Source of the DNA: an uncultured Brevundimonas sp.
GTDB taxonomy: Bacteria; Pseudomonadota; Alphaproteobacteria; Caulobacterales; Caulobacteraceae
Reading direction: 5' to 3'
Assembly: GCF_937870815.1 (NCBI RefSeq)
Contig: NZ_CALMZS010000116.1
Location: forward strand, 3,416 to 67,415
Length of the DNA stretch: 64,000 bases
Shown: piece by piece, positions 6,901 to 38,878 of the stretch
How positions within the stretch are numbered: position 1 is the first letter of the stretch
Layout: each line of letters begins with the position of its first letter
Notes under the pieces: generated by a model
The model's database searches: none
Told to the model about the DNA's origin: nothing
Seen by the model: the letters and a program-made list of their open reading frames with translations, nothing else
Made by a program: the position numbers and the translations under genes

Positions 6901-7002
6901 AGACGACGCGGCGGAGCCGCGGCAATTTCCGGCCTCGGTAGCGAGGCGTGATCCGCGCCGGCCGGAAATCGGATTGCGCGGGAAGATCATTTCGGATAGT
7001 CA

Positions 7003-7018
7003 TTGGAAGCGCTTCCAA
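7003..7018. promoter_or_regulatory. Candidate LacI-family operator, perfect 16-bp palindrome TTGGAAGCGCTTCCAA
   Basis: Read directly. It lies 83-98 nt upstream of the TBDR ATG at 7101. Its core is identical to the site at 5380-5393. Confidence 0.55.
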
Positions 7019-7100
7019 CCCCCTCGTCACGTGGGATGGCGGCGAAACAAAAATGGACGTGCGGCTCAAGGCCCGCGCCGGGGAACAACAGGGGGTATCC

Positions 7101-22721: not shown

Positions 22722-22749
22722 TGCTTGACATGGTCTCGTTGCATGGATG

Positions 22750-22761
22750 TGGTCTAGACCA
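22750..22761. promoter_or_regulatory. Candidate HutC/GntR operator, perfect palindrome TGGTCTAGACCA
   Basis: Read directly. It lies in the 56-bp divergent spacer between the transporter start (22721) and the PLC-like start (22778). It is identical to the core of DasR/NagR-type HutC-family operators (from memory). Confidence 0.55.
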
Positions 22762-22777
22762 ATGCTGCGACGGGTGA

Positions 22778-23974: not shown

Positions 23975-23977
23975 CGC

Positions 23978-25111: not shown

Positions 25112-25911
25112 CCTCCATCCGCGACTGCTTCGACATGGTCGTCTTCGACTGGGCCGGCACCACGGTGGATTTCGGCAGCCGCGCGCCGGTGCTGGCGCTG
25201 ATCGAGGCCTTCGCCGCCCTCGGCGTGACGGTCGCTGAAGAGGAGGCGCGCCGCGACATGGGGCGCGCCAAGGCCGACCATGTCCGCGCCATGTTCGAAC
25301 AGCCCCGGATCGCACGGGCCTGGCGGGGCGCGAACGGCGCTGCGGCGGATCAGGCGGCGGTCGGACGGGTGATGGCTGAGCTCCAGGCTCCGATGGTCCG
25401 GCTGGCCGGGGAGACCGCAGACCTGATCCCCGGCGCCGCCGCCGCCACGGCCCGCTTGCGCGAGCAGGGCCTGAAGATCGCCTCCTGCACCGGCTACACG
25501 CGCGAGATGATGCAGACGATCCTGCCGCGCGCCGCCGAACAGGGCTATGCGCCCGACCTGGTTGTCTGCGCGCACGAGACGCCGCAGGGACGGCCTTCGC
25601 CGCTGATGATCTACAAGGCCAGCGCCGAGCTCGGCGTCTGGCCGCTCACGCGCGTGGTCAAGGTCGACGACGCCGAGGTCGGGATCGCCGAGGGCCGCAA
25701 TGCGGGCTGTTTCACGGTGGGCGTGGCCGCGTCGGGCAATATGGCGGGCCTGACGGCGCCGGCGCTGGCCGACCTGAGCGCCGACGAACGCGCCGCCTTG
25801 CTGGACGCGGCCGCCGACCGGTTGCGCGCCGCCGGCGCCGACCTGGTCATCGACACGGTCGCCGATCTCGTTCCGGCGCTGGAAGCCGAGGCGGCCCGTC
25901 GTGGCGGATAG
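25108..25911 (+). CDS. phnX: Phosphonoacetaldehyde hydrolase (phosphonatase)
   Basis: VVFDWAGTTVDFG (HAD motif I), EEEARRDMGRAKADHVRAM (Schiff-base Lys context), PRIARAW, CTGYTREMM, GRPSPLMIYK and VDDAEVGIAEGRNAGCFTVGV. These are co-linear with canonical PhnX as I remember it. Confidence 0.85.
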   Translation: MTSIRDCFDMVVFDWAGTTVDFGSRAPVLALIEAFAALGVTVAEEEARRDMGRAKADHVRAMFEQPRIARAWRGANGAAADQAAVGRVMAELQAPMVRLAGETADLIPGAAAATARLREQGLKIASCTGYTREMMQTILPRAAEQGYAPDLVVCAHETPQGRPSPLMIYKASAELGVWPLTRVVKVDDAEVGIAEGRNAGCFTVGVAASGNMAGLTAPALADLSADERAALLDAAADRLRAAGADLVIDTVADLVPALEAEAARRGG

Positions 25912-25926
25912 GGTCGGGGCCGACCT

Positions 25927-26544
25927 CTAGGCGGTTGTCCGAGAGACCGGGGCCGCCGCCCGGCTTTGCGCGGCGAGCGCGATCAGCAGGTCGCGGTAGT
26001 CGGCCAGCGGCGCGATCGCGGCGCCCTCGACCTTCCCCAGTTCGTCGTAGCGGCGCAGCCTCACGGCGGCTTCGAAACCGGGCGACGCGCTGAAGGCGTC
26101 GGCCTCCGCCTCGCTCATCGGTCCGCCCTGCAGCTCAAGGCTCTGGCTGGAGGCGGAGCTCAGGGTTTCGAGATACCCCGGTTCACGCGTCGCCAGATAG
26201 CGCTTGGCTTGCACGTGCAGGCGAACCGGCTCTACGACCTGCGGGCCGAAGCCCTGCGCCAGCCAGGCCGCGCCGATCCGCTCGTGAAAGGCGTCGACGC
26301 CACGATCGGCCGCGTCCTCGCCCTGCTTTTGCAGCAGGTGGCCGATGTCGTGCAGCAGGGCCGCGGCCACCAGCGCGTCGGAATCTCCGGCGCAGCGCGC
26401 GTGGTGGGCGCATTGCAGCGCGTGCTCCAACTGCGTCACGGCCTCGCCATAGCGGGCGCCGCCGAGCTGATCGAAGAGGGCGAAGATCGAACAGACGAAG
26501 CCTTCGGCCGAGTGCGGTCGCGTCATAGAGAATCCAGGCGGCAA
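25927..26544 (-). CDS. HD-domain protein of the PhnZ-like (phosphonate-operon HD oxygenase) type
   Basis: TQLEHALQCAHHA...AALLHDIGHLL...HERIGAAWL...VRLHVQAKRYL supplies the His/Asp ligands typical of HD diiron oxygenases. The start is 26544 or 26526. Confidence 0.7.
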   Translation of the reverse strand: MPPGFSMTRPHSAEGFVCSIFALFDQLGGARYGEAVTQLEHALQCAHHARCAGDSDALVAAALLHDIGHLLQKQGEDAADRGVDAFHERIGAAWLAQGFGPQVVEPVRLHVQAKRYLATREPGYLETLSSASSQSLELQGGPMSEAEADAFSASPGFEAAVRLRRYDELGKVEGAAIAPLADYRDLLIALAAQSRAAAPVSRTTA

Positions 26545-26547
26545 AGA

Positions 26548-26559
26548 TGGACTATACCA
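26548..26559. promoter_or_regulatory. Candidate HutC/GntR operator TGGACTATACCA (10/12 match to the 22750 site)
   Basis: Read directly. It lies immediately upstream of the PhnZ-like gene start. Confidence 0.4.
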
Positions 26560-26629
26560 GATTCGCCGCGTGCCGTTAAAGGCCTGTTTGATCGTCGGAT
26601 CGCTGGGATCGACCCGCGGGGTTGGACGT

Positions 26630-28303
26630 CTAACGCGCGGTCAGCAGGTTGGGGTCGATGAACTGGCGCGGGATGCCTGGGCCTTCGAAATAGGCGCCCA
26701 GCCACGAGCCGCCGCCGCCATTGAAATATTCGACGCGGATGGCGTGCTTGCCGGGCTGCAGATCGATGCTGCCGGCGGCGGTGATCACCCCGTGGTCGCC
26801 GTCGTTGTCCACGACCGTCTTGCCGTCGATGTACAGAATGCTGCCGTCGTCAGAGGCCAGCGAGAAGCCGTACGAGCCGGCGGCGGCGATGGTGATGTAG
26901 CCCTCGAAGACCACGGCGACCGCGTCTTCGCGCGGCAGTGTCAGCCCGTCGATGCTCAGCTCATGCGCTCGTCCCGTCGCCGCCGGCGCCAGGCGCGAGA
27001 AGTCGGGAAGCCGCACCGGGCCTTCCGGCAGCAGATAGACGCTGTAGGTCACGCCGCGCGGGCCGGCGCTCTCGTCCAGAATGCGAAAATAGCCGGTGGC
27101 TGGAACGCTGGCGGCGAGGCCGTCCACGAACAGGCCGGCGCGCACGATGGTGCTGCGGCTGATCTGGACCGGGCCGGCGTACAGCGGCGACGCGGCGGTG
27201 GGGATGGAGTTGTCCAACGTGTAGCGGACCTCGCCGGCTGCGTTGGGATTGCGAATGGTCATCCGCGCCGGCTGGCCGAGGAACAGCCCGCCCGAAGGTG
27301 CATTGCCGTCGCCCACGGGTTCGATGACCGGCGAGGCGTAGAAGCTGCTGGTCCGGTAGGTCTGCACCGGCGCCGGCTCGCCTGCCAGGGCAGGCCGAAC
27401 CGGACGGCCCAGCCAGGCATAGGGGATGTCCGCGCCCAGCAGCCAGGCCACGGTCGCGGGGGTGTCGAAGGTGTTGATCGGCAGGTCGAGCTCCACGCCC
27501 CGGTTGACGCCGTCGCCATAGGCGATCCACGGGATCTCCAGTTCGGCCGGCGTCTCCCCGCCATGCCCCTTGCCCACGCCGCCATGGTCGGAGGTCACCA
27601 GGATCACCGTATCGTCGGCGATGCCGGCCTCGACGGTGGCCTGCCGGATGCGGGCGATCAGGGTGTCGGCCTTGGCCACCGCCTCGTAATACTGTGGCGT
27701 GCCATGCCCGTATTCGTGCCCGGCGTGGTCGACATGATCGAAATGGACGAACAGGAAGGCAGGCCGTTTGGCCTTGATATAGCTCTCCGCCAGGGCGGTG
27801 GTTTCGTCCTCGCTCTCGCCGTGGACGTCATAGTCCACGAACCGTTGGTCATAGAGGTTGCCGAACCCCTCCCAATGATAGACCGAACCCACTTCCCACT
27901 CCGGATGCTGGTCCGTCAGGATCTGGAAGATGGACGGGAAGAAGCCGCCGGAGCCGGTGACCGAGGTGGGGAAGTTGAACTCGCCCACCTGCCAGTCATT
28001 GCTGGTCACGCCGTGCTGTTCCGGTCCGGCGCCGTCCAGGATGGAGGCCCAGTTGGCGCCGCTGGTGGTCGGCATCACGGCCCGCGCGTGCAGGCTCCAG
28101 CTGCCGTTCGCCATCAAGTCGTCCAAGGTCGGCGTGGCGGCGCGCCTCACGCCGTCGGGGCTCAGGCCGTCGACGCCGATGACGATGACGTGGCCGGCCG
28201 TCTGGGCGGCGCTGGGGGACGAGACGCCCAGGCCCGCCATGGCGGCGAGGAAGGCCAAGAGCAGCGCGGCGCCCTTGATCGACTGGTTCATGACACGCTC
28301 CAC
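26630..28303 (-). CDS. Secreted nucleotide pyrophosphatase/phosphodiesterase (alkaline-phosphatase superfamily) fused to a C-terminal PA14-like domain
   Basis: Signal peptide (GAALLLAFLAAMAGLGVSSPSAAQ). NPP core VIVIGVDGLSPD...MPTTSGANWASI (nucleophile Thr context)...FVHFDHVDHAGHEYGHG...VTSDHGG. The C-terminal segment SDDGSILYIDGKTVVDNDGDHG...RVEYFNGGGGSWL is typical of PA14. Confidence 0.8.
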   Translation of the reverse strand: MERVMNQSIKGAALLLAFLAAMAGLGVSSPSAAQTAGHVIVIGVDGLSPDGVRRAATPTLDDLMANGSWSLHARAVMPTTSGANWASILDGAGPEQHGVTSNDWQVGEFNFPTSVTGSGGFFPSIFQILTDQHPEWEVGSVYHWEGFGNLYDQRFVDYDVHGESEDETTALAESYIKAKRPAFLFVHFDHVDHAGHEYGHGTPQYYEAVAKADTLIARIRQATVEAGIADDTVILVTSDHGGVGKGHGGETPAELEIPWIAYGDGVNRGVELDLPINTFDTPATVAWLLGADIPYAWLGRPVRPALAGEPAPVQTYRTSSFYASPVIEPVGDGNAPSGGLFLGQPARMTIRNPNAAGEVRYTLDNSIPTAASPLYAGPVQISRSTIVRAGLFVDGLAASVPATGYFRILDESAGPRGVTYSVYLLPEGPVRLPDFSRLAPAATGRAHELSIDGLTLPREDAVAVVFEGYITIAAAGSYGFSLASDDGSILYIDGKTVVDNDGDHGVITAAGSIDLQPGKHAIRVEYFNGGGGSWLGAYFEGPGIPRQFIDPNLLTAR

Positions 28304-28346: not shown

Positions 28347-28358
28347 TGGTATGTACCA
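28347..28358. promoter_or_regulatory. Candidate HutC/GntR operator TGGTATGTACCA (inverted TGGTA/TACCA arms)
   Basis: Read directly. It lies in the divergent spacer between the NPP-PA14 gene (start 28303) and the GntR gene (start 28474). An extra TGGTA half-site lies at 28362-28366. Confidence 0.4.
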
Positions 28359-28473: not shown

Positions 28474-29211
28474 ATGGCGAACGCCGTCTCAGCCCCGAAG
28501 TCCGAAGGCCTGCACTATCTGGGCATGCGCGACGACATCGCGGCGCGCATCGCCGCGGGCGATCTGAAGCCTGGCGACAAGCTGCCGTCCGAGCGGCGCC
28601 TGCAGGACGAGGTCGGCGTCGCGCGCGGCACCGTTCGCGCGGGCCTGTTCCAGCTGGAGGCCGAGGGGGTGATCTATCGCCGCGACCGCAGCGGCTGGTA
28701 CGTCTCGCCTCCGCCCGTCATCTATGACCCGACCCGCTGGGAAGGCTTCATGTCCTATGTCGAGGCGCAGGGGCGCAATCCGACGACGGAGACGATTTCG
28801 GCCGAGCCCATTATCGCCGACCCGCTGCTGGCTCAGGTCTTCTCGCGGCCGCCGGGCGCGCCGCTCTTCATGATCCGCCGCCGCCGCTACGTGGACGGCC
28901 GGGCCGTGCTGGTCGAGCGGATCGTCGTCGACGCCGCCCTCACGCCTCACCTGTTGCGCTTTTCCTTCGACCAGTCGCTGACCGACATCCTGAAAAGCGA
29001 GTACGGCATTTCCGTCTCCCGCAACCAGGTCAGCATGCAGCCCTGCGCCCTGACCGGCCAGGAGGCCGAGGCGCTGCGGGTGAAATCCGGCCTGCCCGGC
29101 CTGGCCGTCCAGCGCATCAGCTACGACGCGCAAGGCCGCGTCGTGGAGTTCGACCACGAGTACTGGCGTCACGACGCGGTGCGGATCAGCGTCGACACGC
29201 GCGTCCGTTAG
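28474..29211 (+). CDS. GntR-family (HutC/PhnF subfamily, UTRA domain) transcriptional regulator
   Basis: The winged HTH is GDKLPSERRLQDEVGVARGTVRAGLFQLEAEGVIYRRDRSGWYV. It is followed by a UTRA-like C-terminal domain. Confidence 0.85.
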   Translation: MANAVSAPKSEGLHYLGMRDDIAARIAAGDLKPGDKLPSERRLQDEVGVARGTVRAGLFQLEAEGVIYRRDRSGWYVSPPPVIYDPTRWEGFMSYVEAQGRNPTTETISAEPIIADPLLAQVFSRPPGAPLFMIRRRRYVDGRAVLVERIVVDAALTPHLLRFSFDQSLTDILKSEYGISVSRNQVSMQPCALTGQEAEALRVKSGLPGLAVQRISYDAQGRVVEFDHEYWRHDAVRISVDTRVR

Positions 29212-29447: not shown

Positions 29448-29498
29448 GGCATGCTCCCCGCCGGGTCCCGACGGCGCGCCGTCAGGACCCTGTCTGGA

Positions 29499-30311
29499 CT
29501 AGACCACAGAGACATTGCTTCCATGAGGTTCGCCACCCGGCTCCGGAGCGATGTGAACGCGCGTGTTCCACTCCGCGGCGACGCGCTGGACATCCGCCGG
29601 CGGCTCCCGGTCCGTCACCAGTTCCTGGACGTCCGCGAACGCCGCGACCTGGATGAAGCCGGACCGGGCGAATTTCGAGTGGTCCGCGAGGACGACGATG
29701 TTGCGGGCCTGTTCCAACAGGGTCTGCTTGAAGGCCGCCTCGTCGGCGTCGAAGTCGAGAAAGCCCCGCTCCGCGTCCACGGCGCCCATCGACAGGATCG
29801 TCAGGTCCGGCGCGAAGCGGCGGCAGAAAGCTTTGGCCTCCGCGCCGAAGGCGGCGTGATAGTCCGCGTTGACCGGGCCGCCGGCCAGCAGCAGACGCTG
29901 TCCCGGATTGCCCAGAACTTCGTAGGCGATCTCGACGCTGTTGGTCACGATCGTCAGGTTCCGCACATGGGACAGGCTGCGGGCCAGCCAGTGGCAGGTC
30001 GTGCCCGCGTCCAGCAACAGCGTCATGCCCTCGCTGACCAGCGCGGCGGCCGTCTGGGCGATGCGCTGCTTGGCCTCGGCATTCTCGCGCAGGCGCAGCC
30101 GATAGGGCGCCTCGATCTTGTTGCTGGTGACCGAAAGACCGCCGTGCACCTTCTGGACGACGCCGCTCTGGCCCAGCTGCCTGGCGTCGCGGCGGATGGT
30201 CTCCTCGGACACCTCGAAGCGGTCCGCCAACTCCGACACGGTCCAGAAGGTCTTCTCTTCAAGGAGTTGGATGATCGCCGCCAAGCGTGCGCCCTGGGTC
30301 AACTGCTTCAT
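29499..30311 (-). CDS. DeoR-family transcriptional regulator
   Basis: HTH MKQLTQGARLAAIIQLLEEKTFWTVSELADRFEVSEETIRRDARQL plus a DeoR C-terminal sugar-phosphate sensor domain. Start at MKQL (30311); the ORF track gives 30344. Confidence 0.85.
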   Translation of the reverse strand: MKQLTQGARLAAIIQLLEEKTFWTVSELADRFEVSEETIRRDARQLGQSGVVQKVHGGLSVTSNKIEAPYRLRLRENAEAKQRIAQTAAALVSEGMTLLLDAGTTCHWLARSLSHVRNLTIVTNSVEIAYEVLGNPGQRLLLAGGPVNADYHAAFGAEAKAFCRRFAPDLTILSMGAVDAERGFLDFDADEAAFKQTLLEQARNIVVLADHSKFARSGFIQVAAFADVQELVTDREPPADVQRVAAEWNTRVHIAPEPGGEPHGSNVSVV

Positions 30312-30589
30312 GGGCGCGTGATTCACCCGATTCTGAACGTCCATCCGGCTTCAATCTCACACGATGCCACGCATTTCAACGCGGCTTGGACGCTAACCCC
30401 GGCGAAAATGCCCTCAAAGACAGGGAAACTCACAAAAACCCACACGTTTCAACATAAATCCCTCAAAACGTCACAGGGCTGCAATCCACCGAGCCTATTG
30501 GACCCCTGTCTCGGCTGTGCGGCCCCGGTCCCAAGCCGATGGTCCGCGCGAACGAGCGAATTGGTCCAGACCAGATGTGGGGCACACAC

Positions 30590-33376
30590 ATGTTCAAGCG
30601 CATTTCCGATCGGGCCGCGCGCCCGAGTCTCAAGACCGTGCTTTTGGCCACCGCATCCGCGGTCGTCATCAGCACCACGACGGCTCCCGCCTTCGCGCAG
30701 GACGCCGTCGACAGCGAACTCGACGAAGTCATTGTCACCGGCTTCCGCCGTTCGCTCGGCGACGCGCGCGACATCAAGCAGGACTCGGTCATCGCGGTGG
30801 ACGCCATCGTCGCCGAGGACATGGCCAAATTTCCGGACCTCAACCTGGCGGAATCGCTGCAGCGTCTGCCGGGCGTGCAGATCACCCGTGAGGCCGGCGA
30901 GGGCCGCCGCATTTCGCTGCGCGGCCTGGGCGCCGACTTCAGCCGCGTTCAGCTGAACGGGATGGAGGTTCTGGGCAATGTCGACTCCGCCCAGGACAGC
31001 CGCGGCCAGCGCTCGCGTGACCGCGCCTTCGACTTCAACATCTTCGCCTCTGAACTGTTCTCGCGCGTCGAGGTCGAAAAGACCTTCCAGGCGTCGCAGA
31101 AAGAAGGCGGCATGGCCGGCACGGTCGGCCTGTTCACCGGTCGCCCCTTCGACACCGGTCCCGGCTTCCGCGGCGCCATGACGGCCAAGGTCGGCACCAA
31201 CGAATACACCGACGACGCCCAGCCGCGCGTCGCCGCCCTGCTCAGCCAGAACTGGGACAATGTCTTCGGCGTCTCCTTCTCGGCCGCCTACAGCCGCCGC
31301 CGGACGACCGAGCAGGGCCACAACACCTATAATTACACGCAAGCCGGCGCGGATCGCCTGCAGAGGATGGTCGACGACGGCCTGGACATCTCGAACCTGA
31401 CCGCGGCCCAACAGGCGAAATTCCTGTCCGGCGACCTGTATTTCGCCGACGGCAACCGCATCTCGTCCTGGAACGCCGAGCAGGAGCGCCTGGGCCTGAC
31501 CGGTGCAATGCAATGGCGGCCGACCGCGAACATGGAGCTGACGCTCGACGTGCTGCACGGCGAGTTCACCACCGAGCGGGACGAGCTGCATCTGGCCACG
31601 CGCCCGCTGAACGCGGCCGGTTCGATCGCCTTCGACGCCGCCGCGGGCGCCCCTTGGCCGGCGATGTTCCGGACGGCGTCGGTCATCAATGACATCGCGT
31701 GGGACGCCAACGACTACGTCACCATGACGGACGTGACCGGCACGACCTTCGGCAGCGAAAACCGCCGGTCGCGCAACGAGAACGAATTCAACCAGATCGT
31801 GCTGACCGGCAAATGGGACCTGACCGATCGCCTGACGATCGACGGTCACATCGGTTACGAGAAGTCGACCTATGAGACCCCCTATGACGACAAGCTGTAC
31901 ATGCGCGCCAAGGGCAACCTGATCGCCAACTATGGCGCGGACGGCCGCTCGGCGACCTTCGAATACCCGGGCTTCGACGCCACCGACCCGGCCAACTACG
32001 CGATGGACTCGTTCTACTACCGCGGCTTCCACAATGAATCGGAACTGCACGAGGGCGAGTTGAACGCGCGGTTCGAACTGAACGACACCTGGACCCTCAG
32101 CGCCGGCCTCGCCTATCACAAGTTCCGTCAGGACGGCGTCGACACCTTCTACGACGACAACGTCAACGGCACGCGCAGCAAGACGCGCGGCACCTCGGTC
32201 GCCGACATCGCCGACGTCTTCACCAACGAGTTCGGCTCCTGGCTGATCGGCAACTACGACCGGGCCTTCGAGAAGTACGGCGAGTACCACCGCTTCGGCC
32301 CCAACGCCGACGGCACGGGCGGCGCGCTGCAGGACATCGAGAACGTCTTCGAGACCACCGAAGAGACGATCTCCGGCTTTGTCCAGGCGGACTGGGACAG
32401 CGAGCTGATGGGCCGCCGCTTCCGCGGCAACATCGGCCTGCGCGGCTACACGACCGATACCCGCAGCGTCGGCTGGATCCAGGGCGACAGCTATGCCTAC
32501 CTGGGCACGTCCGACGTCGAGGGCAGCTATGACGGCGTCCTCCCGGCGTTGAACACGGTGCTGGAAGTGGCCCCTGACATCCTGCTCCGTTTCTCGGCCA
32601 CGCAGAACCTGAACCGACCGGGTCTCGGCTCGATGGCGGCCGAAGGCAGCGCCTTCCAGAATGAGGACTCCGGCGAGATCACCGCCTCGCGCGGCAATCC
32701 GAATCTGGAGCCCTACAAGGTCAACGCCTATGATCTGGGTCTGGAATACTACTTCGGCGACGTCGGCCTGGTCGCGGTCAACCTCTTCCAGAAGGACATC
32801 ACCAACTACATCGGGTCGATCCTGCTGGAGAACGTGCCGTTCAGCGAGACAGGCGTTCCGTCCGGCGCCATCCCCGGGGCCACGGAAAGCACGATCGTCA
32901 GCGAGTTCACGATGCCCATCAACATCGAGGGCACGAACACGCTGACAGGCCTGGAGCTGACGGTTCAGGCGCAGCTGACCTTCCTGCCGGCGCCGTTCGA
33001 CGGCTTCGGCGTGACGGCCAACTACACCAAGGTGGACGCCGACCAGGACCTGACCGGCTTCTCGCCCGAGAGCTACAACGCCACCGTCTACTACGAGACG
33101 AGCCGGTGGGGCGCCCGCGCCTCCATGAGCCACCGCGACACCTGGTTCAGCGGCTACAGCGATAATCCGATGAGCGCCGGCACGCGGGGCTTCGAAGCCT
33201 CGACCTACGTCGACGCCGCCGCCTTCTTCAACATCACCGACGACCTCCAGCTCACCCTGGACGCCGTCAACCTGACCAACGAGAAGGACACTCAGTTCTG
33301 GGGTCGAAACCAGTATCTCTACAATCAGAACCAGAGCGGAACGACCTACATGGGCGGTGTCAGCTACAAGTTCTGA
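30590..33376 (+). CDS. TonB-dependent outer-membrane receptor
   Basis: Signal peptide ...TTAPAFAQD. TonB box/plug sequence LDEVIVTGFRRSLGDARDIKQDSVIAVDAIVAEDMAKFPDLNLAESLQRLPGVQI. The C-terminus ends ...YMGGVSYKF. Confidence 0.9.
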   Translation: MFKRISDRAARPSLKTVLLATASAVVISTTTAPAFAQDAVDSELDEVIVTGFRRSLGDARDIKQDSVIAVDAIVAEDMAKFPDLNLAESLQRLPGVQITREAGEGRRISLRGLGADFSRVQLNGMEVLGNVDSAQDSRGQRSRDRAFDFNIFASELFSRVEVEKTFQASQKEGGMAGTVGLFTGRPFDTGPGFRGAMTAKVGTNEYTDDAQPRVAALLSQNWDNVFGVSFSAAYSRRRTTEQGHNTYNYTQAGADRLQRMVDDGLDISNLTAAQQAKFLSGDLYFADGNRISSWNAEQERLGLTGAMQWRPTANMELTLDVLHGEFTTERDELHLATRPLNAAGSIAFDAAAGAPWPAMFRTASVINDIAWDANDYVTMTDVTGTTFGSENRRSRNENEFNQIVLTGKWDLTDRLTIDGHIGYEKSTYETPYDDKLYMRAKGNLIANYGADGRSATFEYPGFDATDPANYAMDSFYYRGFHNESELHEGELNARFELNDTWTLSAGLAYHKFRQDGVDTFYDDNVNGTRSKTRGTSVADIADVFTNEFGSWLIGNYDRAFEKYGEYHRFGPNADGTGGALQDIENVFETTEETISGFVQADWDSELMGRRFRGNIGLRGYTTDTRSVGWIQGDSYAYLGTSDVEGSYDGVLPALNTVLEVAPDILLRFSATQNLNRPGLGSMAAEGSAFQNEDSGEITASRGNPNLEPYKVNAYDLGLEYYFGDVGLVAVNLFQKDITNYIGSILLENVPFSETGVPSGAIPGATESTIVSEFTMPINIEGTNTLTGLELTVQAQLTFLPAPFDGFGVTANYTKVDADQDLTGFSPESYNATVYYETSRWGARASMSHRDTWFSGYSDNPMSAGTRGFEASTYVDAAAFFNITDDLQLTLDAVNLTNEKDTQFWGRNQYLYNQNQSGTTYMGGVSYKF

Positions 33377-33399
33377 CACGATCGCCGGCCTAGACTGGG

Positions 33400-33423
33400 C
33401 GCCCCTCCTCACCGGGAGGGGCG
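33400..33423 (+). terminator. Stem-loop after the TBDR gene (possible attenuating terminator)
   Basis: CGCCCCTCC-TCACCG-GGAGGGGCG gives a 9-bp GC stem, followed by TCTCGTT. The T tract is weak. Confidence 0.4.
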
Positions 33424-33445
33424 TCTCGTTCCCGTATTCAGAGCC

Positions 33446-34084
33446 ATGATCGTTTCCCACCGCCACCAGTTCATCTTCGCCGCCGTGCCCAAGACCGGCA
33501 CCCACGCCGTGCGACAGGCCCTGCGCGAGCAACTCGGGGACGAGGACGTCGAACAGGTGGGTCTGTTCGTCGACAAGCGTTTCCCGTGGCAGGACCTGGC
33601 CGCCATCCGGCACGGCCACCTGTCACTGAGGCAGGTGCGCCCGCACCTCGGCGAGGCGGCCTTCGGCGGCTATTTCAAGTTCGCGTTCGTGCGCAATCCG
33701 TTCGACCGCTTCGTCTCGTACTGCGCCTTCATGCTGCGTGGCGGCGACATGTTCGAGCGCCAGCCGCGCGAGGTGATGCGCAACTTCCTGTTTGAGCAGC
33801 CGCCCGAGCAGCACATCCTGTTCCAGCCGCAGGCGTCCCTTCTGGTGGACGGGGATGGCGAGACGCTGCTGACGGATGTCGTGGGCCGCGTCGAGGACAT
33901 GCAGGGCTCGTACGACGCGATCTGCGCGCGCATCGGCATTCCCTCCCGGCCGCTGGACCGGGTCAACGGCACCAGGCGCGGCGATTATCGCCGCTACTAC
34001 GACCCGGCCCTGGTCGATGCCGTCGCCGCGCGCTACGCTCAGGATCTGATCCTGTTCGGCTACAGCTTCGAAGGCTCGCGATGA
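33446..34084 (+). CDS. Sulfotransferase (Sulfotransfer_2-like, carbohydrate-type)
   Basis: 5'-PSB loop FAAVPKTGTHAV and 3'-PB motif FVRNPFDRFVSY. C-terminal YDPALVDAVAARYAQDLILFGYSF. No signal peptide. Confidence 0.8.
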   Translation: MIVSHRHQFIFAAVPKTGTHAVRQALREQLGDEDVEQVGLFVDKRFPWQDLAAIRHGHLSLRQVRPHLGEAAFGGYFKFAFVRNPFDRFVSYCAFMLRGGDMFERQPREVMRNFLFEQPPEQHILFQPQASLLVDGDGETLLTDVVGRVEDMQGSYDAICARIGIPSRPLDRVNGTRRGDYRRYYDPALVDAVAARYAQDLILFGYSFEGSR

Positions 34085-34704
34085 GCGACGTCGAGCTGAC
34101 CCCCAATCCGCGCAAGACCACCCGCGTCCGCGCCCTGGGGCCAGTCGATATCGGCGCCTTGCAAGCGGCCGTGCGGGCGATCCCGGAGGCCGTCTGGGAC
34201 GCTGAAAACGCCGGCAAACCCAACAAGCTCGACGTGCTGGACGCCACGCGCCACATCGTCTTGCGTTTCATAGACAGCGGCCGTGACTGGCGCGCATCGC
34301 ACGACCGCCCGGCCTGGCCGGAATGGCGCGCCCTGCTGGAGCCGGTGATGGCCCAGGCCGTGGTTGGTTACGACTACGCACGCGGCGTGTTCCCCCGGGT
34401 GATGTTCGCCAGGATGCGGCCGGGCGGCGTGATCCATCCGCACATCGACGCCAATCCAGCGGCGAAGTGGCCGCACAAGATCCACGTGCCGCTGTCGACC
34501 AACCCCGGCGTGGTGTCCTTCTTCGGGGGCGCGGAGCATCATTTCCCGCCAGGCGAGGCGGTCGAGGTCAACAACCTGGGCCCGCACTGGGTGCGTAACC
34601 ATGGCGACACCGACCGCATCCACCTGATCTTCGAATATTACGACGCCGACCAGCCCGACCCGGCCTGGCTGGCGCCCTTCCTGCTGACGGGCGCCGCGCG
34701 GTGA
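34081..34704 (+). CDS. Aspartyl/asparaginyl beta-hydroxylase-family 2OG/Fe(II) oxygenase
   Basis: GGVIHPHIDANPAAKWPHKIHVPLSTNPGV...GEAVEVNNLGPHWVRNHGDTDRIHLIFEY. The ATG overlaps the upstream stop (ATGA). Confidence 0.8.
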   Translation: MSDVELTPNPRKTTRVRALGPVDIGALQAAVRAIPEAVWDAENAGKPNKLDVLDATRHIVLRFIDSGRDWRASHDRPAWPEWRALLEPVMAQAVVGYDYARGVFPRVMFARMRPGGVIHPHIDANPAAKWPHKIHVPLSTNPGVVSFFGGAEHHFPPGEAVEVNNLGPHWVRNHGDTDRIHLIFEYYDADQPDPAWLAPFLLTGAAR

Positions 34705-35813
34705 ACGCTCCGGTTGACGTCGGCGGTCGCGACGCCTTGCTGCAACGCGCCCGTGACCTGCGCGCCGAACACTGCATCCCGGAAGCCCTGGCCGTCCTCG
34801 CGCGCCTGGAGCAACGGCACCCGCGGTTCAGCCGCCTGCATCACGAGCGTGGCCACTGCCATGTGCTCCAGCGGAATGCGGCGGCGGCGGTGGAGGCCTT
34901 GCGCGAGGCGGTGCGCCTCAATCCCACGCTGCCGGCCAGCTGGGACATGCTGGAGCAGCTCCATCGCCTGCGCGGCGAGACCGCGCAGGCGGCCTTCGCG
35001 GCGGAGCGCCTGGCCGTCCTGAGACAATTGCCTCCAGAGGTGGTCGCGGCCGACAGCCTGTTGGCCGACGGCGACCTTGAGCCGGCCGAAGCCATTCTTC
35101 GGGACTATCTGCGCCGGGCCGGCGACAATGTGGGCGCCCTGCGGCTGTTGGCGCGCATCCGCCAGGCGCAAGAGGCGCCGGAGGAGGCCGCGTCGCTGCT
35201 GGAAGCGGCGCTCGAACGCGCGCCGGACTATCACGCCGCGCGGCTCGACTACGCCATGCTGCTCCTCACCCGGCAGCGGCCCCTCCTGGCGCGGCGAGAG
35301 GCCGAACACCTGCTCGGCCACGACCCTGACAATCGCGACTACCGCAAACTGTACGGGGCGGCCTGCGTCGCCCTGGGCGACCATGAGCCGGTCATCGACC
35401 TGTACGAAAGGCTGCTGGCCGACCGACCCGCGTCGGGCGCCGAGGTCGCCGACCTGCGTCTGTGGCGGGCGAACGCCCTCAAGGTCGTTGGCCGACAATC
35501 GGAAGCCATCACCGACTATCGCGCCTCCCTTGCGGCGCGGCCCGACAATGGCGTCGCCTGGTTCAGTCTGGCCAACCTCAAGACCCATCGCTTCACCGAC
35601 GACGACATCGCCCGCATGCGCGCCGCGGAGGCGCGCCACGACCTGCAGGACATGGATCGGGTCTATCTGTGCTTCGCCCTTGGCAAGGCGCTGGAAGACG
35701 AGAACGACCATGCCGCCTCGTGGCGGTACTATGAGCGCGGCAACGCCCTGCGCCGCGCCGCGCCGCCGGCCGCTGGCGCTCCGAGGTCGCGGAGGCCTGC
35801 GCCCTGCGGCTGA
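34701..35813 (+). CDS. TPR-repeat N-terminal part of a TPR-sulfotransferase (frame interrupted near 35750-35775)
   Basis: Multiple TPR-like repeats. The GTG start overlaps the upstream stop (GTGA). The last roughly 20 residues (AAPPAAGAPRSRRPAPCG) look out of frame. See the frameshift finding. Confidence 0.65.
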   Translation: MNAPVDVGGRDALLQRARDLRAEHCIPEALAVLARLEQRHPRFSRLHHERGHCHVLQRNAAAAVEALREAVRLNPTLPASWDMLEQLHRLRGETAQAAFAAERLAVLRQLPPEVVAADSLLADGDLEPAEAILRDYLRRAGDNVGALRLLARIRQAQEAPEEAASLLEAALERAPDYHAARLDYAMLLLTRQRPLLARREAEHLLGHDPDNRDYRKLYGAACVALGDHEPVIDLYERLLADRPASGAEVADLRLWRANALKVVGRQSEAITDYRASLAARPDNGVAWFSLANLKTHRFTDDDIARMRAAEARHDLQDMDRVYLCFALGKALEDENDHAASWRYYERGNALRRAAPPAAGAPRSRRPAPCG

Positions 35814-35818
35814 AGCCG

Positions 35819-36625
35819 GTGTTCACGGCCGAGTTCTTCGCCGCGCGGGCCGGCTGGGGCGTCGCCGACGCGGCGCCGATCTTCATCGTCGGCCTGCCGC
35901 GCTCGGGCTCGACATTGATCGAACAGATTTTGGCCTCGCATTCGCGGGTCGAGGGCGCCCAGGAACTGACCGAGATCGACCGATACGCCGGCGAACTGTG
36001 CGGTCGCGATCCCGATTGCGGCCTGCCGCTGCGTCCCGAAGCCCTGGCGCGTCTCGCGGACAAGCAGGCCCGCGCGCTGGGCGAACGTTTCCTTGCCGAC
36101 ACGGCCGTCCATCGCCGGCTGGGCAGGCCGTTCTTCATCGACAAGATGCCGAACAACTTCTGGCACATCGGCCTGATCCATCTGATCCTGCCCCGATCCA
36201 TCATCATCGACGTGCGGCGCGAGCCGATGGCCTGCGGCTTCAGCAACCTCAAACAGCTGTTCGGCACGACCAACCAGGCCTTCACCTACGGCGCGGAAGA
36301 CATCGCCCGCTACTATCGGACCTACCTCGACCTGATGCGGCACTGGGACGAGGCGCTGCCGGGACGCGTGCTGAGGGTGCAGTACGAGGACGTGGTCGAT
36401 GACCTGGAAGGCGGCGTGCGGCGCATGCTGGCGCATTGCGGCCTGCCGTTCGAACCGGCCTGCCTGAACTTCCACGAGACCCGGCGCAGCATCCGCACGC
36501 CCAGCTCCGAACAGGTGCGCCGGCCCATCGGCCGGGAGGGGCTCGACCAATGGCGGAACTACACGCCGTGGCTGGCGCCGCTTCGGGATGCGCTGGGCGA
36601 TGCCGCGACCGGCTACAGGGGCTGA
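35819..36625 (+). CDS. Sulfotransferase catalytic part of the same TPR-sulfotransferase
   Basis: PIFIVGLPRSGSTLIEQILASHS (PAPS 5'-PSB), IIIDVRREPMACGFS (3'-PB region). This frame is open and protein-like back to about 35770 (GRWRSEVAEACALRLKPVFTAEFF). Confidence 0.7.
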   Translation: MFTAEFFAARAGWGVADAAPIFIVGLPRSGSTLIEQILASHSRVEGAQELTEIDRYAGELCGRDPDCGLPLRPEALARLADKQARALGERFLADTAVHRRLGRPFFIDKMPNNFWHIGLIHLILPRSIIIDVRREPMACGFSNLKQLFGTTNQAFTYGAEDIARYYRTYLDLMRHWDEALPGRVLRVQYEDVVDDLEGGVRRMLAHCGLPFEPACLNFHETRRSIRTPSSEQVRRPIGREGLDQWRNYTPWLAPLRDALGDAATGYRG

Positions 36626-36628
36626 TCG

Positions 36629-37582
36629 ATGCGTCTCGCCAAACCCTTCTTCCAGCTCCCCGTGCTGTTCGAGGTCGAGCGGCTCCAGGCCGAGGTCGCG
36701 GCCCTGCCGCCCGAGGCCTGGGTCCCGCACCCCGACAGAGTGCCGGGCAACAGCGCGGCGCGCCTGATCAGCGCCGGCGGGGCCGAGACGGATTCCGTTC
36801 ACGGCCAGATGCTCCCGACGCCCTGGCTCGCGGCCATGCCTTACGCGCGTCAGGTGCTGGCGGGCTTCGGCGTGGTGTGGAGCCGCTCGCGCCTGATGCG
36901 CCTGGCGCCCGGTGCGGTCGTGCCCGAGCACGCCGACATCAACTACCACTGGCACACCCGCGTGCGCCTCCACATACCGATCACGACGCGACCGCAGGTG
37001 AGCTTCCACTGCGACGGCGAGACCGTGCACATGGCCGCCGGGGAAGCCTGGATCTTCGACAACTGGCGCAGGCACCATGTTGAGAACAGGGCAGAGGCAG
37101 ATCGCATTCACCTGGTCGCGGACACCACCGGCACGGCCGCCTTCTGGCGTTTCGCCTGCGGCCCGACCCCGCCGCGCGCGCAATGGCGGACCATGCCCTG
37201 GAACCCGGACATCACCCCGCGCCTGCTCACCGAGAGCGACCATCACTCACCGATCATGCCCGCCGCCGAGGTGCAGCTGTTGGTCGACGACCTCCGCGCC
37301 GAACTGACCATCACCGCTGAAAGCCCCGACGCCAGGGCCAGGGCCGTGCGGTTCGGCCTGCTGCTGGAGAGCTTCGTCCAGGACTGGCGCCAGCTGTGCG
37401 CCCTTCACGGCGTCAGCGGTCGCGCCCGCCCGGAGTTCGAACGCCTGGTCGCCGCCGCCCATCAGGCGGCCAGACCGCTCGCCGACGGTCTCGTCATGCG
37501 CACGAACCACGCCGGCGCCCTGCTGGTGCTCGAAAAGCGCGTGCTGCAGCATCTGGTCGCGGACGACGGAGCCGAGACGTGA
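36629..37582 (+). CDS. Aspartyl/asparaginyl beta-hydroxylase-family 2OG/Fe(II) oxygenase (second copy, longer)
   Basis: GAVVPEHADINYHWHTRVRLHIPITTRPQV...GEAWIFDNWRRHHVENRAEADRIHLVADT, plus a C-terminal extension of about 130 aa. Confidence 0.8.
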   Translation: MRLAKPFFQLPVLFEVERLQAEVAALPPEAWVPHPDRVPGNSAARLISAGGAETDSVHGQMLPTPWLAAMPYARQVLAGFGVVWSRSRLMRLAPGAVVPEHADINYHWHTRVRLHIPITTRPQVSFHCDGETVHMAAGEAWIFDNWRRHHVENRAEADRIHLVADTTGTAAFWRFACGPTPPRAQWRTMPWNPDITPRLLTESDHHSPIMPAAEVQLLVDDLRAELTITAESPDARARAVRFGLLLESFVQDWRQLCALHGVSGRARPEFERLVAAAHQAARPLADGLVMRTNHAGALLVLEKRVLQHLVADDGAET

Positions 37583-37723
37583 TCCGATCACCAGACGGCC
37601 GGCGCGGGGCGGCCGCCCAAACTGTCACGCTCGGGATGTAGTCCGCACATCGACGACGCGACCTCGCCCCGGCGCAAGGTCGTGGTCGGCGCCCGACACC
37701 CTTCAGGCCTGGAGCCGCACACC

Positions 37724-38878
37724 ATGAAACGCGTCCGCTATCCGACCTTCCTGGCCGTCGCCGCCCTGCTTGCCCTGACCGCCGCGCCCGTGCTGGCCCA
37801 GGACAATCCGGCGCCCGCTTCGGAGGCGACGCATCCGGCCAGGGCCAGGAACGTCATTCTCTTCCTCGCCGATGCGGGCGGTGTGTCGACGATCTCGGCG
37901 GCCAGCCTTCTGGGCTATGGCGAGCCCCTGCGCCTGCATGTTCAGCAATGGCCGTATCTGGGACTGAGCGAGACTTCGCCCGTCGATGAGTTCGTCTCGG
38001 ATTCGGCGAACGGCATGTCGTCGATCGTGACCGGCGTGAAGACCCGCAACGGCGTCATCAGCCAGGGCCCTGACGCGGTGAGGGGGCAGAGCGACGGGGC
38101 GCCGGCCAAGACCCTGCTGGAGTATGCGGAGGAGCAAGGCCTGTGGACCGGCGTCATCACGACCCAGTCCATCGCCGACGCCACGCCGGCGGCCAGCTAC
38201 GCCCATTCGAACGATCGGGGAGACTGGGGCCGGATCTTCGCCCAGGTCTTCACCCCGCGGTTCGGCGACGGCGTCGATGTGATGTTCGGCGCGGGCCGTC
38301 AGGCAGTCGGCGATCAGCTGAACGCCCTGGGCACGGGCTTCGACGCGCTCGGCCAGACCCGCGCCCGACCGATCTATGCGACGCTCGGGGACGCGCCGGC
38401 CGAGAACATGCGGCCGGTGGTGGTCAGCGACGCGATGGACGTTCACGCCGCCACGCTCCGCGCCCTGGACATCCTGCAACAATCGCCCCGCGGCTATTTC
38501 CTCATGGTCGAATGGGACGCCCACACCGACGATCCGCGTGCGGGTCTGCAGAATGTGGTCGATTTCGACAGGCTGATCGCCCAGGTGCAGAGCCGGGTCG
38601 ATCTAGACGACACCCTGCTGGTGTTCACCGCGGACCACGCCTTCGGCCTGCAGGTCGACGGCGGCCGTCGCGGCGAACCTCTGCTCGAAGGCTACGATGC
38701 CTGGAAGGCCTCGGGCGACGAGGCCGACCTCGTTCGCCTCGAGAACGTGCTGGTCAACCGCACGCACACGGCCGAGGAGGTTCCGGTTCTGGCGATCGGG
38801 GTCGGCGCCGAGCGCGTCCGAGGGTATTTCCCCAACACCTACCTGTTCCGGGTGATGATGGACGCCTGGGGCTGGTGA
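37724..38878 (+). CDS. Secreted alkaline phosphatase (PhoA-type fold)
   Basis: Signal peptide MKRVRYPTFLAVAALLALTAAPVLAQ. VILFLADAGG, DSANGMSSIVTG (nucleophile Ser context), ADATPAASYAHS and EWDAHTDD. Confidence 0.85.
   Translation: MKRVRYPTFLAVAALLALTAAPVLAQDNPAPASEATHPARARNVILFLADAGGVSTISAASLLGYGEPLRLHVQQWPYLGLSETSPVDEFVSDSANGMSSIVTGVKTRNGVISQGPDAVRGQSDGAPAKTLLEYAEEQGLWTGVITTQSIADATPAASYAHSNDRGDWGRIFAQVFTPRFGDGVDVMFGAGRQAVGDQLNALGTGFDALGQTRARPIYATLGDAPAENMRPVVVSDAMDVHAATLRALDILQQSPRGYFLMVEWDAHTDDPRAGLQNVVDFDRLIAQVQSRVDLDDTLLVFTADHAFGLQVDGGRRGEPLLEGYDAWKASGDEADLVRLENVLVNRTHTAEEVPVLAIGVGAERVRGYFPNTYLFRVMMDAWGW

Follow-up and report, generated by a model that had tools for sequence, protein, structure and literature searches.

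A conserved TonB-dependent receptor locus with sulfotransferases and AspH-type oxygenases in a predicted PhnR-type regulon of Alphaproteobacteria

A Receptor Locus with Four Tailoring Enzymes

Caulobacterales, Sphingomonadales and Xanthomonadales-like bacteria take up nutrients mainly through TonB-dependent receptors (TBDRs), and many of these receptors adjoin enzymes of unassigned role. One such receptor is encoded on contig NZ_CALMZS010000116.1 of an uncultured Brevundimonas sp., in a stretch of 64,000 nucleotides with a G+C content of approximately 70% (hereafter referred to as the window), where its gene is followed by genes for two sulfotransferases and two AspH-type Fe(II)/2-oxoglutarate (2OG) oxygenases. 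Which substrate do these enzymes hydroxylate and sulfate, and what ties them to a receptor of the outer membrane? A preliminary description, prepared from the sequence without database searches, had proposed a six-gene operon behind a divergent DeoR regulator, which included a secreted phosphatase, and had left the class of substrate open. According to the comparative analysis presented here, the receptor and the four enzymes represent a TBDR-linked tailoring-enzyme locus built on the pairing of hydroxylase and sulfotransferase.

Conservation of the Five-Gene Unit

Orthologous loci were collected by scanning one genome per species with a profile of the larger oxygenase, which yielded 80 loci (designated by L numbers), and gene order was determined by tblastn. 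Module counts refer to 42 alphaproteobacterial species-level loci, and neighbouring genes were counted within 10 kb. In all 42, the genes appeared in the colinear order TBDR, small sulfotransferase, small oxygenase, sulfotransferase with a tetratricopeptide repeat (TPR) array (hereafter TPR-sulfotransferase) and larger oxygenase. The loci originated from Brevundimonas, Caulobacter, Phenylobacterium, Asticcacaulis, Sphingomonas, Sphingobium, Novosphingobium and Caenibius, as well as from one Acetobacteraceae metagenome-assembled genome (MAG) and one ‘Rhizobiales’ isolate. The clustering of the five core genes is far beyond chance; the set of one TBDR, two sulfotransferases and two oxygenases, for which the preliminary description had suggested a gene-neighbourhood comparison, is conserved as a unit, and its view of a cytoplasmic sulfation and hydroxylation module tied to an outer-membrane TBDR is supported by this colinearity. 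The module is also widespread: the scan of one genome per species found it in at least 42 species, and its metagenomic homologs number in the thousands.

The enzymes of the module show an unusual degree of conservation. TBDR orthologs were 60–90% identical in 38 loci, and for the same species pairs the identity values amounted to 73–88% for the small sulfotransferase, 65–83% for the oxygenases and 60–90% for the TBDR. The flanking phosphorus genes were less conserved than the enzymes, with approximately 50–62% identity in the Sphingomonadales loci, for which the small sulfotransferase gave 73–86%. Among its 120 best matches, which span Caulobacterales, Sphingomonadales and a Rhizomicrobium MAG, the small sulfotransferase was 84–94% identical and nearly always exactly 212 aa long, and the larger oxygenase was 77–91% identical across genera. 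The module is paired with at least three different TBDR subfamilies. In two Sphingobium loci (L035 and L037), the small AspH-type oxygenase is absent and the small sulfotransferase gene is followed directly by that of the TPR-sulfotransferase, representing a three-enzyme variant.

In the window, all module genes are located on the plus strand. The receptor gene (30590..33376, 928 aa, with 30590 as the best start) and a GC-rich hairpin (33393..33430) precede the genes of the small Sulfotransfer_2-type sulfotransferase (33446..34084, 212 aa) and the small AspH-type oxygenase (34081..34704, 207 aa), the latter overlapping each of its neighbours by 4 nt. These are followed by a TPR array open reading frame (ORF; 34701..35813, 370 aa), which was matched by several TPR families and corresponds to the N-terminal part of the TPR-sulfotransferase, a Sulfotransfer_3 ORF (35819..36625, 268 aa from a GTG codon) and the larger oxygenase gene (36629..37582, 317 aa). 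The junctions consist of an ATGA overlap at 34081, a GTGA overlap at 34701 and a 3-nt gap between 36625 and 36629, and the four enzymes are translationally coupled. A gene for a secreted PhoA-family alkaline phosphatase of 384 aa (37724..38878, plus strand; PF00245 Alk_phosphatase, 144.9 bits) lies downstream as an accessory neighbour, and a DeoR/GlpR-family regulator gene (29499..30344, minus strand; DeoRC 163.9 and HTH_DeoR 56 bits; best NCBIfam match GlpR with 167 bits, below cut-off) is divergent from the TBDR gene. Signal peptides were found for the TBDR and the phosphatase only; the four enzymes feature neither signal peptides nor membrane segments. In these respects the preliminary description proved reliable: the coordinates of the DeoR, TBDR, small sulfotransferase, oxygenase and phosphatase ORFs were confirmed, the three junctions were seen as it had given them, and its distribution of signal peptides was borne out. 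The HMM assignment that it had suggested, carried out with Pfam and NCBIfam, gave domain matches above the cut-offs for all parts it had named.

Its six-gene unit governed by DeoR and including the phosphatase is very improbable as a general description and is largely refuted. Gene order and orientation in the window are as it had described them, and the same layout with DeoR and PhoA recurs in Brevundimonas albigilva (L004). However, DeoR was detected in 7 out of the 42 loci and PhoA in one, PhoA was encountered outside the window only in L004, L090 and L091 of a Brevundimonas sublineage, and in the closest relatives (L090 and L091) a phospholipase C gene occupies the position of DeoR. Moreover, the phosphatase gene is separated from the larger oxygenase gene by a gap of 140 nt that contains no operator and does not fold better than its shuffles (z +1.14), and a conserved hairpin follows the TBDR gene. 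DeoR and PhoA are lineage-specific add-ons that lie outside the module.

Families and Catalytic Residues of the Enzymes

Both sulfotransferases carry the motifs for binding of 3'-phosphoadenosine 5'-phosphosulfate (PAPS), and both oxygenases feature an HxD...H triad, so that the PAPS-binding and His-containing cupin motifs reported earlier were recovered. In the small sulfotransferase, PKTGTH and RNPFDRFVS, taken as the 5'-PSB and 3'-PB motifs, were invariant in 14 homologs, and PF03567 matched residues 1–92 only (49.5 bits; cut-off 22). No solved relative was found by sequence, and its AlphaFold2 model, with a predicted local distance difference test (pLDDT) score of 41, was unusable because the alignment was shallow.

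The Sulfotransfer_3 ORF covers positions 1–216 of the 216 profile positions of PF13469 (160.9 bits, full length), with homology starting at approximately 35750. Its best solved relative was the protein-tyrosine sulfotransferase 8w5z (E 3e-7), followed by TPST1/2 (approximately 2e-3). The CurM/OLS sulfotransferases, which are more distant, reached approximately 1e-3 with the window's Sulfotransfer_3 ORF, and approximately 1e-4 with the Sulfotransfer_3 part of fused relatives in profile A1. In the full-length alignment of the domain, the Arg, Glu, Lys and Ser that are catalytic in TPST have been retained; the alignment to 8w5z/TPST1 comprises the PRSGST loop as well as AQE versus GEE, DKMP versus NKDP and SSEQV versus STDQV. 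Judged from these residues, the TPR-sulfotransferase is TPST-like, and it would probably sulfate tyrosine.

With 29% identity (E 1e-12), the two oxygenases are paralogous and have the HxD...H triad in common, with H101, D103 and H161 being invariant in oxygenase alignment A1, and both exceeded the PF05118 cut-off of 22.6 bits with their metal-binding residues present (42 bits for the small and 55.9 bits for the larger enzyme). Human AspH uses a two-His metal site. The AlphaFold2 model of the larger oxygenase (pLDDT 93.4) consists of a cupin core and a unique helical C-terminal domain. Foldseek matched it to L-proline cis-4-hydroxylase (9e-12), a nucleoside-antibiotic hydroxylase (8e-9) and human AspH (1e-8), and also to proline 3-hydroxylase. 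The PF05118 cupin core is thus common to the module, human AspH and bacterial proline hydroxylases (1e-8 to 9e-12), whereas the helical domain has no counterpart in the latter two and the identity is only 15–18%. Unlike human AspH, the alphaproteobacterial oxygenases lack TPRs and possess the triad as found in proline hydroxylases; the TPR-plus-oxygenase architecture of the Asp/Asn hydroxylases acting on EGF domains was not encountered in the window. The fold of the larger oxygenase does not by itself reveal whether the substrate is a small molecule or a protein. An exact-sequence look-up of the window's oxygenase returned no record.

The family of the larger oxygenase comprised 2868 members at E <1e-3 among 50%-identity representatives. 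Most of the longer relatives listed (approximately 600–1050 aa) were oxygenase–Sulfotransfer_3 fusions, and a Pfam check of ten of them confirmed this architecture for nine, four of the ten also carrying DUF4915 (TIGR03032). These fusions argue that hydroxylase and sulfotransferase act on the same substrate in sequence. In all six contexts examined for the fusion with DUF4915, which stem from Alcanivorax, Thermoanaerobaculia and other metagenomic contigs, a divergent large secreted protein was encoded next to it. These neighbours feature beta-helix/PMP-type repeats (...ISGN.A...GGGI...), some with Calx-beta domains and an IPTL-CTERM-like C-terminal sorting tail. A widespread tri-fusion of approximately 1000 aa (AspH-type oxygenase, Sulfotransfer_3 and DUF4915/TIGR03032) was seen beside such secreted proteins in L084–L089, and L087 encodes at least four secreted beta-helix/PMP-repeat paralogs together with a second DUF4915 gene.

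The Split TPR-Sulfotransferase Gene of the Window

In the orthologous loci, the TPR-sulfotransferase is encoded by a single intact ORF of 633–651 aa (e.g., L001, L002, L090 and L091), and the closest relatives of the window, Brevundimonas sp. DC300-4 and a sister strain (small sulfotransferase 93% identical), possess an intact gene of 651 aa. In the window, the TPR part (34701–35813) and the Sulfotransfer_3 part (35819–36625) are located in different frames. A tblastn comparison with intact orthologs of 633 and 643 aa placed the frame change directly after ...YYERGN, and blastn revealed a 5-nt gap at a tandem repeat in comparison with the twelve best-matching orthologous loci, the window having three GCGCC copies (35750..35764, a frameshift of +5 nt) and those loci two. 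The fusion of a sulfotransferase to a long TPR array described previously therefore does not apply to the window itself, in which the third GCGCC copy splits the gene. The TPR ORF ends at 35813, shortly before a GTG codon at 35819, so that reinitiation could yield a stand-alone sulfotransferase; the split TPR-sulfotransferase of the window may be defective, or its two halves may function as separate polypeptides. In Caulobacter sp. FWC2 (L001, 3905–6764), the TBDR gene of the module is interrupted, three ORFs being left, and it was missed in gene calling. Along with the frameshift of the window, this suggests either decay of the module in some strains or assembly errors.

Receptor and Intergenic Hairpin

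The TBDR belongs to the TIGR01782 (TonB-Xanth-Caul) subfamily, with 616.2 bits at a cut-off of 310 (Plug 58.6 bits, barrel 121 bits). Its N-terminus consists of a Sec signal peptide, MFKRISDRAARPSLKTVLLATASAVVISTTTAPAFAQ, followed by the TonB box DEVIVTG, both judged by eye, without a predictor. Orthologs of this TBDR from Caulobacterales and Sphingomonadales share a conserved n-region of the signal peptide (M.K.YPVRA.RPNLK..LLATV; MFKRISDRAARPSLKTVLLATA in the window, within 30590–30700). Signal peptides usually diverge fast.

The hairpin between receptor and first enzyme gene folds with -31.9 kcal/mol in the window, and 9 out of 200 shuffles folded equally well (z -1.66). Orthologous spacers between the TBDR and small sulfotransferase genes were folded individually, because MAFFT mis-registers their variable inner stems (only 4 pairs were called in a consensus fold). 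All 39 distinct spacers formed a GC-rich hairpin, with energies ranging between -18 and -55 kcal/mol; stems of at least seven contiguous pairs were present in 27 of them, 18 of which also featured a T-rich tail. The hairpin usually ends approximately 20 nt before the start codon of the sulfotransferase gene, leaving no room for a separate promoter, and it is read, on the basis of these folds, as a putative leaky terminator or attenuator. An Rfam search of the window between 20 and 40 kb provided no match to a riboswitch or other known RNA, and a sigma-70 promoter and terminator scan of the window was uninformative in DNA of such high G+C content.

A Predicted PhnR-Type Regulon

A palindrome of the HutC/DasR class, TGGTNNANACCA, matched the window 22 times compared to 3.07 matches expected, and none of the shuffles reached 22. 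Six of the sites were matched on both strands, and five of these six were located in the stretch between 22.7 and 30.6 kb. One of them, the predicted operator TGGTCCAGACCA (30562..30573), ends 16 nt upstream of the TBDR start codon. In the orthologous loci, this operator was detected with at most one mismatch at 32 out of 38 TBDR promoters (exactly in 29), 22–66 nt before the aligned TBDR start and between a -10-like element and the ribosome-binding site; it is eroded in some of the loci with DeoR and absent in Asticcacaulis. Further predicted copies in the window are located in the divergent promoter region between the DUF5690 and phospholipase genes (TGGTCTAGACCA, 22750..22761), upstream of the phnZ-type gene (26548–26559) and in the divergent region between the phosphodiesterase and GntR regulator genes (28347–28358). 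An operator-like palindrome, TGGACTAGACCA (29495–29506), overlaps with the DeoR gene at its 3' end, a position at which a promoter would not be anticipated; possibly it has remained from a gene order found elsewhere, with the operator and DUF5690 behind the GntR gene.

These sites mark a phosphonate/organophosphate island (21417–28303, with its regulator extending to 29211) directly upstream of DeoR and the module. It encodes DUF5690 (21417–22721, minus strand; Pfam 512.7 bits), a Ca-dependent phosphatidylinositol-specific phospholipase C (22778–23974, plus strand; Pfam 397.3 bits), a PbfD-type FAD oxidase (23978–25111, plus strand; TIGR03364 399 bits), the phosphonatase PhnX (25108–25911, plus strand; TIGR01422 324 bits), a PhnZ-family HD oxygenase (25927–26544, minus strand; TIGR03276 221.6 bits, cut-off 214.6; PDB matches PhnZ 2e-30 and TmpB 1e-29) and a phosphodiesterase with a PA14 domain (26630–28303, minus strand; Pfam Phosphodiest 110.6 and PA14 54.8 bits). 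PbfD and PhnX represent the published oxidative-deamination route for 2-aminoethylphosphonate (PMC10590968). The regulator (28474..29211, plus strand) is a PhnR-like protein of the GntR/HutC family with helix-turn-helix and UTRA domains (Pfam UTRA 124 and GntR 61.5 bits); it scored 258.5 bits against the PhnR equivalog TIGR03337, which is below the cut-off of 296.75.

The same context was found across the module loci. At least one phosphorus or phosphonate gene was detected in 39 out of 42, with varying order and orientation, and the individual counts were 30 for the GntR regulator, 26 for PhnZ, 24 for phospholipase C, 19 for PhnX, 17 for PbfD and 16 for DUF5690. Motif and gene context place the module in a predicted PhnR-type regulon, with the GntR/HutC-family protein as the putative repressor. 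Its association with a PhnR-type operator and with genes for phosphonate use, phospholipases and phosphatases suggests a concrete inducing condition, which makes the function of the module testable.

The definition of a Pho box required two CTGTCAT-like repeats at a distance of 11 bp, located 5' of the -10 element. In approximately 30 loci without DeoR, a Pho-box-like repeat, CTGTCAC-N4-GTGTCGC, is located just 5' of the -10-like element of the TBDR promoter; in the window it is replaced by aCGTCACagggCTGCAAT. As the repeat is confined to the TBDR promoter in these loci, control by PhoB is no more than a possibility. In the loci with DeoR (window 30400–30480; L002, L004, L007, L010, L014 and L045), the common upstream element is a different one, comprising repeated CCACA motifs as well as ...tttcaacataa.tccctcaaa.cGTCACa...CTGCAAT; it is possibly the operator or promoter of DeoR.

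A Rearranged Version in Steroidobacteraceae

In Steroidobacteraceae, the components are arranged differently around another TBDR. This set includes a TPR-sulfotransferase, a TPR-AspH protein with the architecture of human AspH and a larger oxygenase fused to Sulfotransfer_3, as well as a small sulfotransferase-like protein and a small oxygenase encoded on the opposite strand. Neither a phosphorus context nor an operator of the window type was found in these gammaproteobacterial loci, which are flanked by housekeeping genes. Palindromes of the type GTTG-N8-CAAC recur upstream of their TBDR genes (e.g., L054, L055 and L066) and hint at a different regulator.

Between the enzyme genes of approximately 13 of these loci, a small secreted protein of approximately 145 aa is encoded (L053, 12092–12529), consisting of a signal peptide, a Pro/Ala-rich linker and a conserved C-terminal domain with two Cys; it has no Pfam match. 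This protein is a possible substrate or partner of the enzymes in that lineage. As a substrate shared by all loci it was rejected, no homolog having been found in the window or in the alphaproteobacterial loci.

What Is the Substrate?

The search for conserved precursor genes comprised ORFs of 35 aa or longer from 84 loci, which were clustered all against all, and ORFs of 18 aa or longer 3' of the last enzyme gene. None was found in the spacers, upstream or downstream, the clusters representing shadow ORFs and known neighbours, and no exporter, scaffold-building enzyme or inner-membrane importer was present among the conserved neighbours of the module. The lack of a precursor-peptide ORF and an exporter noted for the window in the preliminary description agrees with these results. 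If the module works across two orders, its substrate must be carried along, imported or ubiquitous. The TBDR is the only exported protein always encoded together with the enzymes, which makes its precursor the simplest candidate.

We tentatively propose that the module hydroxylates and then sulfates an exported protein, possibly the TBDR itself, under PhnR-type control. Besides the colinearity, the operator, the phosphorus context and the hairpin, this proposal draws on the oxygenase–sulfotransferase fusions and their secreted neighbours, the TPST-like residues, the TPR-AspH protein of the gammaproteobacterial loci, the lack of a conserved precursor ORF and the prediction made by Iyer et al. 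(PMC2938197) for related neighbourhoods. The narrower version, according to which the enzymes are a post-translational modification system dedicated to the TBDR precursor and acting in the cytoplasm before Sec export, is rather doubtful. In the proposed mechanism, a PhnR-like GntR repressor would keep the operon off until a phosphonate-type inducer, e.g., 2-aminoethylphosphonate, is sensed, the module being switched on along with phosphonate and phosphorus scavenging, and DeoR would add a second regulatory input in the lineage of the window. The leaky terminator would provide the receptor in bulk and the enzymes in small amounts, resulting in a high substrate-to-enzyme ratio, as in operons for ribosomally synthesised and post-translationally modified peptides (RiPPs). 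The enzymes would work as two hydroxylase/sulfotransferase pairs using 2-oxoglutarate/O2 and PAPS, converting C-H to C-OH and further to C-O-SO3, and probably also Tyr-OH to Tyr-O-SO3. The substrate protein would be modified in the cytoplasm before export, the TPR array serving as the docking domain; if the substrate is the receptor precursor, the array may dock on it, perhaps on the conserved n-region of the signal peptide. If modification of an exported protein is true, tyrosine/hydroxyl sulfation and AspH-type hydroxylation would be extended to bacterial envelope proteins, and if the receptor is the substrate, it would represent the first TonB-dependent transporter with such a modification, and tyrosine/hydroxyl sulfation would have gained a new use in bacteria.

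Several observations weigh against this proposal. To our knowledge, no modification of any TBDR is known, and the pairing of the module with several TBDR subfamilies fits a cargo-related function as well as receptor modification. The small sulfotransferase family is better known for glycan substrates, and the nearest solved relatives of the oxygenase include free-proline and nucleoside-antibiotic hydroxylases, not only protein hydroxylases. With regard to the regulatory part, the operator is assigned to the GntR regulator by motif class and proximity only, and the gammaproteobacterial loci are devoid of a phosphorus context. In addition, a weight matrix of the Pho-box-like repeat matched the TBDR promoter only and none of the other phosphorus genes in the loci, and the repeat may simply represent the -35 region.

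It is conceivable, though somewhat unlikely, that the receptor imports a phosphonate or organophosphate compound and that the four enzymes act on this small molecule in the cytoplasm. The predicted operator is common to the module and the pbfD-phnX, phnZ, DUF5690, phospholipase and phosphodiesterase genes. PhnZ was found in 26 out of 42 loci, and no PhyH-type partner hydroxylase was detected among the neighbour clusters; one possibility is that an AspH-type oxygenase takes the place of the PhnY*-type hydroxylase that is missing, supplying its product to the PhnZ-family oxygenase of the same regulon. A bolder version, by analogy with the chemistry of the CurM sulfotransferase and the breakdown of 2-chloroethylphosphonate, assumes that hydroxylation beta to phosphorus followed by sulfation would create a leaving group and lead to fragmentation of the C-P bond. 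If true, action on phosphonates would be new chemistry for phosphorus scavenging. The existence of free-amino-acid hydroxylases among the solved oxygenase relatives and the resemblance of the Sulfotransfer_3 domain to CurM/OLS sulfotransferases (approximately 1e-3) are in agreement with a small-molecule substrate. However, the module is devoid of an inner-membrane transporter, and both the TPR domains and the TPST-like catalytic residues speak for a protein or peptide as the substrate. Moreover, Steroidobacteraceae possess the same enzyme set and a TBDR with no phosphonate genes nearby, the distant fused relatives adjoin secreted proteins and not catabolic genes, and a role of sulfation in phosphonate catabolism is not generally known, nor is one mentioned in PMC10590968.

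The enzymes could also convert an endogenous metabolite or peptide into a sulfated and hydroxylated scavenger or signal that the receptor re-imports, as exemplified by methanobactin operons, which pair the TonB-dependent transporter MbnT with the sulfotransferase MbnS (PMC3621798). Siderophore-like products were proposed by Iyer et al. (PMC2938197) for TBDR-linked oxygenase clusters, and a lasso-peptide cluster of Pontixanthobacter lists two sulfotransferases and an Asp beta-hydroxylase (PMC10040529). This explanation is nevertheless unlikely: the genes that such a product would require, namely for a precursor, scaffold-building enzyme, exporter and inner-membrane importer, are not conserved with the module, which appears self-contained across two orders, so that a separately encoded precursor would need conservation or co-transfer. 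Less likely again is a phosphorus-sparing remodelling of the envelope, in which a lipid or glycan is hydroxylated and sulfated, sulfate replaces phosphate as the anionic group and the receptor is merely co-regulated. The phosphorus-scavenging context does include phospholipases C, the AspH-family enzyme LpxO hydroxylates lipid acyl chains (a weak NCBIfam match of 21.6 bits), and the small sulfotransferase family includes glycan sulfotransferases. Yet the enzymes lack membrane segments, the gammaproteobacterial loci lack the phosphorus context, and the TBDR as constant first gene in three different architectures would be left unexplained. Regarding the substrate class left open previously, the evidence from fusions and gene neighbourhoods now favours a protein, as assumed in the modification of an exported protein tentatively proposed here.

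Comparison with Characterised Systems

Whether the cluster had already been characterised, a possibility raised in the preliminary description, was addressed by a literature search, which found no characterisation of this TBDR–sulfotransferase–oxygenase module. All of its parts belong to known protein families, and no characterised system with this composition was found. The supplements of the Caulobacter phosphate-starvation paper and Blanvillain 2007 contain no mention of the module enzymes. In the species-level scan, no clear copy was detected for Caulobacter crescentus, the only trace being a contig of 1 kb from a MAG labelled C. vibrioides (L044); the module is therefore probably not covered by what has been published on the model strain, which may explain the silence of the literature.

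With TPST1/2 and bacterial RaxST, the TPR-sulfotransferase of the module shares the Sulfotransfer_3 fold, a PRSG(S/T)T loop and, in the alignment, conserved Glu, Lys and Ser; unlike them, it is cytoplasmic and carries a TPR array of approximately 350 aa, the similarity being distant (E 3e-7 to 5e-3). RaxST loci encode the precursor raxX and a type I exporter and are not known to include a TBDR. The CurM/OLS domains, to which the similarity within Sulfotransfer_3 is likewise distant, also sulfate after a hydroxyl group has been generated, but as parts of polyketide synthases they prepare a beta-hydroxyl for decarboxylative elimination by activating it, whereas the module includes no thioesterase or carrier protein.

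The closest parallels in gene neighbourhood were described by Iyer, Abhiman, de Souza and Aravind in 2010 (PMC2938197), according to whose prediction secreted proteins encoded in the vicinity are first hydroxylated and then sulfated at the new hydroxyl. As in the module, 2OG oxygenases were linked to P-loop sulfotransferases, and TonB-type receptors were linked to oxygenase clusters in alpha- and gammaproteobacteria (TBDR with SapC, a halogenase and JmjC). The five-gene composition and a regulatory link to phosphonate genes are, in contrast, not described there, and the substrates proposed, prediction throughout, were collagen-like or tail-collar proteins. Methanobactin loci also combine a TonB-dependent transporter with a PAPS-type sulfotransferase (PMC3621798), but differ by their precursor peptide, the MbnBC core enzymes and an exporter. 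PhnR-controlled catabolism of 2-aminoethylphosphonate (PbfD/PhnW-PhnX; PhnY*-PhnZ) resembles the operator-marked island of the window with its PhnR-related GntR/UTRA regulator and its PbfD, phosphonatase and PhnZ genes, whereas known phosphonate regulons contain no TBDR–sulfotransferase–oxygenase operon.

Other Features of the Window

Two further genes of the window, both located upstream of the phosphonate island, are unrelated to these findings. A paralogous TBDR (6948–9932) is 26–30% identical to the receptor of the module, and an SNF2-family helicase of 958 aa is encoded on the minus strand (17929–20805).

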